Below, in pieces: positions 56,300 to 57,790 of a DNA stretch of 64,000 nucleotides. The notes beneath the pieces are model-generated. The model worked only from the letters and a program-made list of their open reading frames with translations, made no database searches and was not told the origin of the DNA. This DNA comes from Psilocybe cubensis (taxonomy: Eukaryota), in assembly GCA_017499595.2 (NCBI GenBank), contig CM039006.1, positions 1,054,001 to 1,118,000 on the forward strand. Reading direction: 5' to 3'. Numbering within the stretch: the first letter of the stretch is position 1; every line of letters begins with the position of its first letter. A program made the position numbers and the translations under genes.

Positions 56300-57790
56300 T
56301 TCATCGTCTCTTGCCTCTCTTCCACCACCATCTCTTGGAAAAGTTGCAATGTTTTTCACCCTCAGTGCTATACCTCAACACCATGCTTCGTCAATGGCGT
56401 ACCTTTAAACGCGTAAGTCGTATCCATCTCGCCGTTGTTCAACTCTTCTGACAATAGTGTGCAGCATTCTCCTGACCACGCCTGGGACAAGACTAGCCCT
56501 GGCTTGTGTCCTTTCAATTTATCTCGCCTCTAGGACATATCGCCCGGAGCCATTTGCCACACCGTCAGTCCTATCGACCTGAAAGCCACTAATCAATCCC
56601 CGCCCAATGTAGACTCGTTCCCAGTGACTTTAAGACACAGCAGGAAGTATTGCACTCCACATCGGCCGCGCAGTCCGGCCTGGTGGGTTAGGCCTGCGCG
56701 GTATGCCTACATAAGTTGGGTCATGGATGGGGCAGATGGCACTGCCCTCACCTCGTCTTGATAGGTGGCGCCCCCAAGACCAGCTCAGCTAGTTGCATGC
56801 CATCGTCGCTTCTAGCTGGGCCCTTGGGGGTGTGTATGAAATGCTGTTGTATCCCGTCCCCTCCCCGCGAAAAAAGTAGCATCAGTTGTATGCCATCGTC
56901 GCTTCTGATGTGAATCGTGGGTGACGGCGGGTGCATTTGTTTGTCATGTTTGTGGGCGAGTCTGGCGAGCGGAGATTGATTAGAGGTATGTTCTCCTATA
57001 TTCTTTCTCTAGTCAGTTTTAACTAATCGTGATTCAGCTCAGGCGTTGGACAGAGGTGGAGTCGGATTGCGATACAACTCACTCTTCCCATTACGATTAA
57101 TATGGTCTCAAGTTCCTTTAAACAGTGGGTCCGCCGTAATGCTTGCCACATGCGAGAGATCTGCTTGGGTGAGTGTCAATAATTCAATGCGATCATTGTT
57201 TGCTCACATTGACATTTCCTAGGTCTTGATAATTTGTAAACACTGCAGTCAAATTCTACTCAAACTATATCAAGCCCAACTAGATCTGGGTCCTCGGTCC
57301 TGTTTCTATGTTGTGAGTTTATGCAAACTCGCTCAATGCCATGGCTGACCAAGAGTCACAAGCTATTTTGTCTTTTCTGTTTTTCTTTTTTCTTGCGGAA
57401 TTTCTTTATTAGTTTTAGTATCACTTGATTTGGGATGTTTGGGAGGTTCTGTGGTAAAGGACGTTGCATGCAGTGAGTGTTTCCTTGCTTGGGAATCTTA
57501 TGCTGTTAACGTGTCGACCAAGGGTACCTTGCCATAAAAATTCACATTTTTACACAACCACAAGTACATACAACCAGCAAACTTAGGAAGTGTCATGCAA
57601 CGGTCTGCTGAATGGGACCTCTTAAAAATGAGTAAGTTCACCTGGTATGTATAGCCTTTAGCCATCCAGCTAATAGGTTTTATATAGATTACCTTCAAAT
57701 TATTTGTCTTATTTGCAAGCTTCATTGCTTTTTCTTTCGACCTTCTTCTTTAGCTAATTAAATTTCTTCATGAACGCAACACTCACATAC
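56300..57790 (+). ncRNA. Putative spliced, structured lncRNA, copy B; ends approximate
   Basis: TATAAGAA at 56269-56276. Introns at 56413-56464, 56564-56612, 56701-56764, 56986-57037, 57169-57222, 57313-57362, 57473-57522 and 57632-57687, each with a donor, branch-like site and AG. Only short spliced ORFs found. Confidence 0.6.

Follow-up and report, generated by a model that had tools for sequence, protein, structure and literature searches.

Several well-described RNAs present one short motif repeatedly to a protein. In iron-responsive elements (IREs), for example the five in the 3' untranslated region of the transferrin-receptor transcript, several hairpins carry one apical motif on unlike stems, and in IRE-type systems protein-bound hairpins regulate translation. 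Among non-coding RNAs, the roX-box stem-loops of Drosophila roX1 and roX2, the A-repeat of Xist and the determinant of selective removal (DSR) repeats of meiRNA likewise repeat a short motif for a protein, and the DSR repeats of fission-yeast meiRNA sequester Mmi1. To our knowledge, very few structured elements of fungal long non-coding RNAs (lncRNAs) are known, and none in mushroom-forming fungi. Here we describe twin RNA hairpins in a stretch of 64,000 nucleotides (nt) from Psilocybe cubensis (contig CM039006.1, positions 1,054,001 to 1,118,000), hereafter called the window, whose first letter is position 1 of all coordinates. The hairpins hold the same 23-nt tip on different stems and lie side by side in one exon of a spliced transcript, the gene for which is present in two inverted copies. 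We consider it probable that they are a functional RNA structure of some kind, and we assign a probability of roughly 45% to the more specific reading that, on a lineage-restricted lncRNA, they serve as a bivalent docking module to which a sequence-specific RNA-binding factor binds.

The 23-nt word AGTTGYATGCCATCGTCGCTTCT occurs on the + strand at 56791-56813 and 56884-56906 and on the - strand at 6000-6022 and 5907-5929, that is, at two sites in each arm of an inverted repeat of about 2 kb. Chance would give none in the window, and none was seen in 100 dinucleotide shuffles. A search allowing up to two mismatches found no fifth site within the window, and a window search with the 14-nt core of the tip returned the same four. 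Each tip site lies at the end of a predicted hairpin, so that the element consists of the following parts:

56791-56813, + strand: tip 1 (AGTTGCATGCCATCGTCGCTTCT), located as an exact repeat
56884-56906, + strand: tip 2 (AGTTGTATGCCATCGTCGCTTCT), located by the exact-repeat search
56768-56833, + strand: hairpin 1 of the right copy, with a minimum free energy (MFE) of -41.3 kcal/mol when folded alone, retained in the 181-nt and 521-nt folds
56848-56935, + strand: hairpin 2 of the right copy, with an MFE of -35.8 kcal/mol when folded alone, retained in the 181-nt and 521-nt folds
5980-6045, - strand: hairpin 1 of the left copy (tip at 6000-6022), with four differences from the right copy, all still paired
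5878-5965, - strand: hairpin 2 of the left copy (tip at 5907-5929), without any difference from the right copy

Hairpin 1 is 66 nt long and has a main stem of about 21 pairs, made up of a lower stem of 11 base pairs (bp; 56768-56778/56823-56833), a 4-nt/1-nt internal loop and an upper stem of 10 bp (56783-56792/56812-56821) with the tip above it. A linker of 14 nt leads to hairpin 2, in which four helices of 4 + 6 + 9 + 7 pairs are stacked with bulges and an 8/3 internal loop, below the same mini-stem as in hairpin 1. The two tips are spaced 93 nt apart. In the predicted fold, each tip starts with two closing pairs, above which a UU/UU internal loop leads into a 5-bp mini-stem; this mini-stem contains a bulged C and is capped by a CCAU loop. 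The predicted pair probabilities within the mini-stem are 0.96-1.0 for the lower two pairs and 0.60-0.74 for the upper three. The shared word is therefore, as modelled, a structured tip and more than a plain loop, since it also supplies the top two pairs of the stem.

The stability of this structure was compared with that of shuffled sequences on both strands using RNAfold. The segment 56760-56940 folds at -77.5 kcal/mol on the + strand, compared with -58.0 +/- 3.9 kcal/mol for the shuffles (z -5.03; none of 200 shuffles as good), and at -58.8 kcal/mol on the - strand (z -2.62; 1 of 200 as good). Furthermore, the complete 521-nt exon folds at -202 kcal/mol on the + strand (z -3.68; none of 100 shuffles as good) with both hairpins retained unchanged. 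The 106 nt upstream are of ordinary stability on the + strand (-44.4 kcal/mol; z -0.98; 37 of 200 shuffles as good), and the twin hairpin is thus exceptional in its immediate surroundings. The left copy adopts the same MFE structure as the right, and the energies of the right versus the left copy are -77.8 vs -72.9 kcal/mol on the + strand and -58.8 vs -50.1 kcal/mol on the - strand. In addition, G.U pairs number seven in the main stems, and isolated A.C mismatches are absent. Decay of a DNA palindrome through transitions would be expected to yield the two equally, which is the basis of a rough sign test giving p 0.008, where the 4-by-1 internal loop of hairpin 1 could mask an A.C apposition. 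An earlier note on this DNA, made from the letters alone, had placed the tip at the four positions given above, all of which the window search recovered, and the stems it drew are those found by RNAfold. It had also suggested folding both strands as a check, and the + strand fold is favoured over shuffles to the extent just described. Its statement that the hairpins pair only on the spliced strand went too far: pairing is markedly better on that strand (z -5.03 vs -2.62), but it is not exclusive to it.

The transcript that carries the hairpins can be reconstructed from public sequencing data, and its features are as follows:

56300-57990, + strand: spliced transcript of the right copy, approximate extent (ends not mapped), from the joints and contig pieces
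56465-56985, + strand: hairpin-bearing exon of the right copy, 521 nt, from GT..AG joints in RNA-type contigs; a DNA contig continues past the second site
5828-6348, - strand: left-copy equivalent of the 521-nt exon, with the same splice-site hexamers as the right copy
56413-56464, 56986-57037, 57169-57222, 57313-57362 (less certain), 57473-57522 and 57632-57687, + strand: introns of the right copy, from the joints

This stretch is contained in 12 rows of public sequencing runs, the highest word share being 0.79. None of the 12 is recorded as RNA, and four of them were compared (X6, X10, X11 and X12). The RNA label of X10, X11 and X12 is a guess, and the RNA status of X10 and X12 rests on their intron-less joints. 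The splicing evidence comes from a relative that is about 99% identical and not from the window's own strain, and no ranking of expression or copy number was drawn from the depths. Contigs of X10 and X12 show clean GT..AG joints on the + strand at 56412>56465 (from X12), 56983>57036 (from X10, cut +2), 57167>57222, 57472>57523 and 57631>57688, and a sixth joint at 57312>57365 is less clean. None of these joints is present in the DNA run X6, whose contigs run through four of the introns, and X11 provided a single unspliced contig of 168 nt at depth 2, which is uninformative. The contigs of X10 span 56488-56983 unbroken and hence cover both hairpins, and the one with hairpin 2 is itself joined over the next intron; RNA-type cover was limited to 56377 to about 57900. 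Taken together, the joints and the unbroken X10 cover place the hairpins in the 521-nt exon of a + strand transcript of about seven exons, and the transcribed strand is the one on which the G.U pairs work. The donor and acceptor hexamers of all six introns are identical between the two copies. A putative TATA-like element, TATAAG at 56269-56274, is kept in both copies and stands about 50 nt ahead of the first transcribed base seen.

There are also signs of further transcript forms in these runs. One X10 contig matches exon 3 (57040-57169) with 17 differences in 130 nt and then continues into 27 unmatched letters, and X10 and X12 have in common a loose end after 57627. The exon 3 contig and the loose end may reflect an alternative exon or an expressed third paralogue that is more diverged.

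The reading frames of the spliced sequence are short. The longest open frame has at most 115 codons and the longest frame with an ATG has 98, or 108 when the less certain fourth intron is removed. The 98-codon frame begins at an ATG at 56947, located 12 nt 3' of hairpin 2, and runs over the spliced exons. It has several upstream ATGs and no recognisable features, and the sole difference between the copies in its first two exons is non-synonymous (57111 A/C, Gln to His). A different frame, 56692-56913, translates the tip as SCMPSSLL twice, with no ATG ahead of the first tip. Two of the three arm differences between the copies alter residues of this frame, as would the changes that related sequences carry at 56825 and 56830, and it has no scored match among 5.8 billion protein clusters. 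A protein-coding exon or a repeated-core peptide precursor was rejected on these grounds, namely the missing start codon, the residue-changing differences and the lack of protein relatives. A frame on the opposite strand over the hairpins matched one low-complexity repeat protein (E 3e-4, among 1.84 billion representatives), which was taken as spurious. As there is neither a usable frame nor a protein relative, the transcript is treated here as non-coding, presumably an RNA polymerase II lncRNA without a convincing reading frame.

The gene is part of an inverted duplication, the arms of which lie 50 kb apart:

56168-58226, + strand: right arm of the inverted duplication, from self-comparison of the window
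4610-6665, - strand: left arm of the inverted duplication, from self-comparison of the window

The best ungapped stretch between the arms is 1480 nt at 97% identity, and the gapped alignment of 56168-58226 with 6665-4610 is about 91% identical over about 2 kb. These are the only two copies of the duplicated gene within the window. Between 56605 and 57312 there are six differences in 708 nt (about 99% identity), and the introns are as similar as the exons, so in this block the copies are either homogenised or recent; the outer parts of the arms differ by 3-29%. The duplication is a mosaic in this respect, which suggests that it is old and had its middle homogenised by gene conversion. Inverted arms at this distance could, separately, mediate inversion of the segment between them. 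The four differences between the copies of hairpin 1 (right/left) are 56770 G/A, 56772 C/T, 56776 A/G and 56796 C/T, so that its 5' arm holds three of the six differences of the 708-nt block. All four retain a standard pair, as the earlier note had described for its pair-preserving swaps. The interval 56768-56796 (6017-6045 on the - strand) is substitution-rich, and copy-specific versions seem to persist there while the flanks are homogenised.

Comparison of the two hairpins with each other also indicates that the tip and the pairing matter. When hairpins 1 and 2 are aligned on the tip, five of the seven upper-stem pairs differ on both sides and all of them still pair. The tip-anchored alignment contains standard pairs in 36 of 36 cells, which is matched by none of 500 shuffles, and sliding the partner reduces pairing to 19-75%. 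Below the upper stem the hairpins cannot be aligned, and the tip is identical at 22-23 of its 23 positions. A fixed tip with its flanks replaced pair by pair would not be expected from neutral divergence of a duplicated hairpin, and a tract of 23 nt would be too short for ordinary gene conversion. We infer that selection acts on both the tip and the pairing. Similarly, position 56776 pairs with 56825 as A-U in the right copy and as G.U in the left, and in the relatives X10 and X6 the pair is G-C; there, every contig over these sites has G at 56776 and C at 56825 (X10, 137 of 137 depth at both sites; X6, 12.8 of 12.8 and 11.1 of 11.1). Judged from these sequences, this is a two-step compensated series through a wobble intermediate. 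Within hairpin 2, the changes listed for the relatives are confined to the A-run of the large internal loop, where an A is inserted and one A>C occurs.

The earlier note had proposed an RNA motif under selection on the spliced strand. This proposal is supported by the sense of splicing, by the stability of the fold, by the tip kept with exchanged pairs and by the A-U/G.U/G-C series, which bear on the motif itself and not on the choice among the functions the note had offered. It had named an untranscribed region as a finding that would speak against the motif, and the hairpins were found on + sense spliced contigs of RNA-type runs.

The anatomy of the element, with two rods, identical tips at a spacing of 93 nt and stems free to change if they remain paired, is that of a displayed recognition site. 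The rods, with main stems of about 21 pairs in hairpin 1 and about 26 in hairpin 2, would each hold out the same 23-nt tip, so that the tip would be the recognised part and the stems would serve only as scaffolding. A sequence-specific RNA-binding protein, either as a dimer or as two molecules, would then dock on the two tips together as a bivalent site, and the bound RNA would be localised or stabilised, or would titrate the protein. A protein partner and bivalent binding are thus suppositions drawn from this layout. An extended form of this reading, which we put forward tentatively, is that of a previously undescribed module: in Psilocybe-like agarics, a spliced lncRNA with a duplicated gene would carry twin rods whose identical tips provide a bivalent site for a dedicated RNA-binding factor, and the fast-evolving, pair-keeping stem of hairpin 1, distinct in each copy, could act as a copy-specific tuning element. 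The tuning element is suggested by the several-fold faster evolution of the hairpin 1 stem relative to its surroundings, with its pairs kept and the copies remaining different.

A number of observations weigh against the docking module, and several of them speak for the alternative that the hairpins are a DNA-level feature or mutational by-product, that is, quasi-palindromes reshaped by template switching or cruciform processes, the RNA fold of which has no role. The identity of hairpin 2 between the copies is explained by gene conversion or a recent copy and not by selection. By hand count, a transition would leave the pair intact at 30 of the 52 bases paired in hairpin 1, so that four pairs kept out of four gives p ~0.11 alone, which bears out the caution of the earlier note that its transitions may be chance. 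Hairpin 1 is a substitution hot spot, with four of the six differences of the block in 66 of 708 nt (binomial p 0.001), and the contigs of X10 and X6 split at the same place into two forms, each with 7 differences in 118 nt. In one of the two forms, in both X10 and X6, the change 56830 G>A either breaks a pair (C.A) or belongs to a second compensated one; its partner base 56771 lies within about 30 nt of a contig end, where differences go unlisted, and 94 differences were not displayed. Templated mutation of a quasi-palindrome yields matched changes on both arms, and the matched changes on the two arms of hairpin 1 fit such a process, as does the hot spot. The - strand also beats its shuffles (z -2.6). 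Moreover, the relatives are about 99% identical to the window outside hairpin 1, so the comparative depth is minimal, and no homologue of the hairpins was found in the metagenome, viral or protein collections searched. Even so, the imperfections of the stems are one-sided (seven G.U, no isolated A.C) and favour a single RNA strand, the transcribed one, and two different palindromes around the same 19-nt centre would be hard to produce by mutation alone. A miniature inverted-repeat transposable element (MITE) or other foldback would have like arms and a free centre, the reverse of what is observed, and there are only two gene copies in the window. On balance we regard a purely DNA-level origin as unlikely.

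The remaining alternatives accept a role for the RNA and differ in what that role would be. Dicer-like cleavage to microRNA-like RNAs of about 21 nt, taken either from the arms or from the tip with its 5'-U, would make the hairpins small-RNA precursors, a function raised in the earlier note with the tip as the source. With 66 nt, about 21 stem pairs and -41.3 kcal/mol, hairpin 1 does resemble a precursor microRNA in both size and energy, and it is situated within an exon of an apparently non-coding polymerase II transcript. In microRNA genes, however, the mature arm is expected to be more conserved than the loop. Of these microRNA-like properties, a stem of about 21-22 pairs and a favourable energy are present, but the arm is not the more conserved part: the loop is conserved while the arms differ wholly between the hairpins, and no stretch of the block varies more than an arm of hairpin 1. 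In addition, a 21-mer from the loop is not a normal Dicer product, and a search of the window for target-like matches to the tip or to either 3' arm found none. We regard a small-RNA precursor as decidedly unlikely, given this conservation of the loop over the arms. The tips might instead base-pair, either with a second RNA or, through their self-complementary GYAUGC, with one another as a kissing dimer, and thereby tether a target or dimerise the transcript. The GCAUGC of tip 1 in the right copy is a perfect 6-nt palindrome, GUAUGC can self-pair through two G.U, and a small hairpin at 56731-56748 has an AUGGCA loop complementary to the UGCCAU present in each tip. Yet the palindromic bases are predicted to lie inside the mini-stem, the best duplex of the 19-nt loop within the repeat (-18.4 kcal/mol) was equalled or bettered by 15 of 30 shuffled loops, and no antisense match to the tip was found within the window, so that we think RNA-RNA recognition very improbable. 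The least probable of these accounts has the hairpins act as leader structures controlling translation of the short frame from the ATG at 56947. Stable 5' hairpins block scanning ribosomes, and hairpin 2 ends 12 nt ahead of this ATG; against this account, the frame has the upstream ATGs, the absence of recognisable features and the Gln/His difference described above. The bivalent docking module therefore remains our preferred reading.

Membership in a known RNA class was also considered. Rfam 15 gave no match at gathering thresholds over the whole window, and at E <=10 the region 56000-58200 matched only CRISPR-DR47 (E 6.6) and SCARNA7 (E 9.6), both outside the hairpins. Membership among the IREs was rejected: in place of a CAGUGN apical loop with an unpaired C five pairs 5' of it, the element has a CCAU loop, its bulged C falls on the 3' side of the mini-stem, and Rfam gave no match. 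An H/ACA small nucleolar RNA (snoRNA) was likewise rejected, as neither an H box ANANNA in the hinge nor an ACA three nt from the 3' end is readable in 56834-56950 and there is no Rfam match at E <=10. A MITE or foldback transposon does not agree with the same core on unlike arms and the two gene copies within the window. For telomerase RNA, which would need a template of at least 1.5 C-strand telomere repeats, and assuming a TTAGGG-type repeat, no (CCCTAA)n 8-mer was present on the + strand of 56168-58226, and there is one 8-mer of the G-strand at 56685. No tRNA-like element or tandem repeat overlies the hairpins.

Homologues were similarly scarce. A metagenome scan with the 21-nt tip returned no match. 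A scan with two 11-nt cores gave at least 119 stretches, none with fewer than 6 mismatches to the 23-nt tip among the matches listed, and these are considered chance matches, mostly in G+C-rich DNA. A viral scan with the 19-mer found one match without palindromic flanks, which was also taken as chance. Literature searches, which covered titles and the openings of abstracts, did not reveal such an element.

Some smaller features lie next to the hairpins. A small hairpin, GGGCAG-AUGGCA-CUGCCC, is found at 56731-56748 (+), with a loop complementary to the UGCCAU of both tips. The sequence AUUUGUUUG at 56935-56943 (+) is immediately 3' of hairpin 2 and about 45 nt ahead of the 5' splice site. We take it to resemble the Sm-site consensus, and no other features like those of small nuclear RNAs or of telomerase RNA were found beside it.

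The wider window contains ordinary genes, including in the 50 kb between the arms, and a mating-type or metabolite-cluster context was rejected for this reason. The genes encode a GH5 protein, a GMC oxidoreductase, an AA9 protein, a PcRGLX-like protein, an amidase, a Der1 protein, an NF-X1 finger protein, a kinase and a DUF6533 protein. The DUF6533 protein and the wood-decay enzymes among them are in keeping with an agaric. Each copy of the hairpin-bearing gene points away from a different neighbour. Downstream of the right copy there is an intron-less frame of 558 codons (58537-60213, +) without a Pfam domain, the two halves of which appear alike in translation. This frame has two relatives only among 5.8 billion clusters, one from Psilocybe cubensis at 80% and a second at 46%, and there is no paralogue of it beside the left copy. 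The sequence TATAAATA occurs at about 58220, just within the end of the right repeat arm. Elsewhere in the window, a tandem duplication (37745-39914 / 42030-44227) has a period of 4.3 kb and an identity of 79-89% in eight collinear blocks, with frames lacking a Pfam match.

We rate the hairpins as a real, unclassified RNA motif, a rating limited by the narrow taxonomic evidence. A compact, easily mutated motif with the same tip on two stems would offer a handle on an RNA-binding protein and on the function of a lineage-restricted lncRNA. Furthermore, a pair-keeping hot spot in near-identical copies is a natural test case for distinguishing selection on RNA structure from templated palindrome mutation. 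If deeper sampling were to bring no covariation, the element would be a curiosity of a narrow group of species.

To summarize, the twin hairpins can be set beside several known systems, each of which they resemble in part. Like H/ACA snoRNAs they comprise two adjacent hairpins, here with a 14-nt linker, but they have no two-sided pocket, their apical loops are identical and they are exonic. Like fungal microRNA-like precursors they include an exonic hairpin of pre-miRNA size on a presumed polymerase II transcript; unlike them, the loop is fixed and the arms are free. The likeness to IREs is that several hairpins with unlike stems share one apical motif and a short upper helix has an unpaired C, and in IREs the protein recognises the tip plus its shape. 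However, with a CCAU loop, a UU/UU internal loop, the C on the 3' side and an apparently non-coding RNA, the present element is an analogue in logic only. The roX boxes, the Xist A-repeat and the meiRNA DSR repeats differ from it too, since here there are only two copies of the motif, the stems are very long, there is no sequence similarity and the host belongs to the Agaricales. With these RNAs, which are spliced or polyadenylated, the hairpins nonetheless have in common a short conserved motif repeated on an apparently non-coding RNA, and by this likeness a decoy or platform function would be a reasonable model for the twin hairpins of Psilocybe cubensis.

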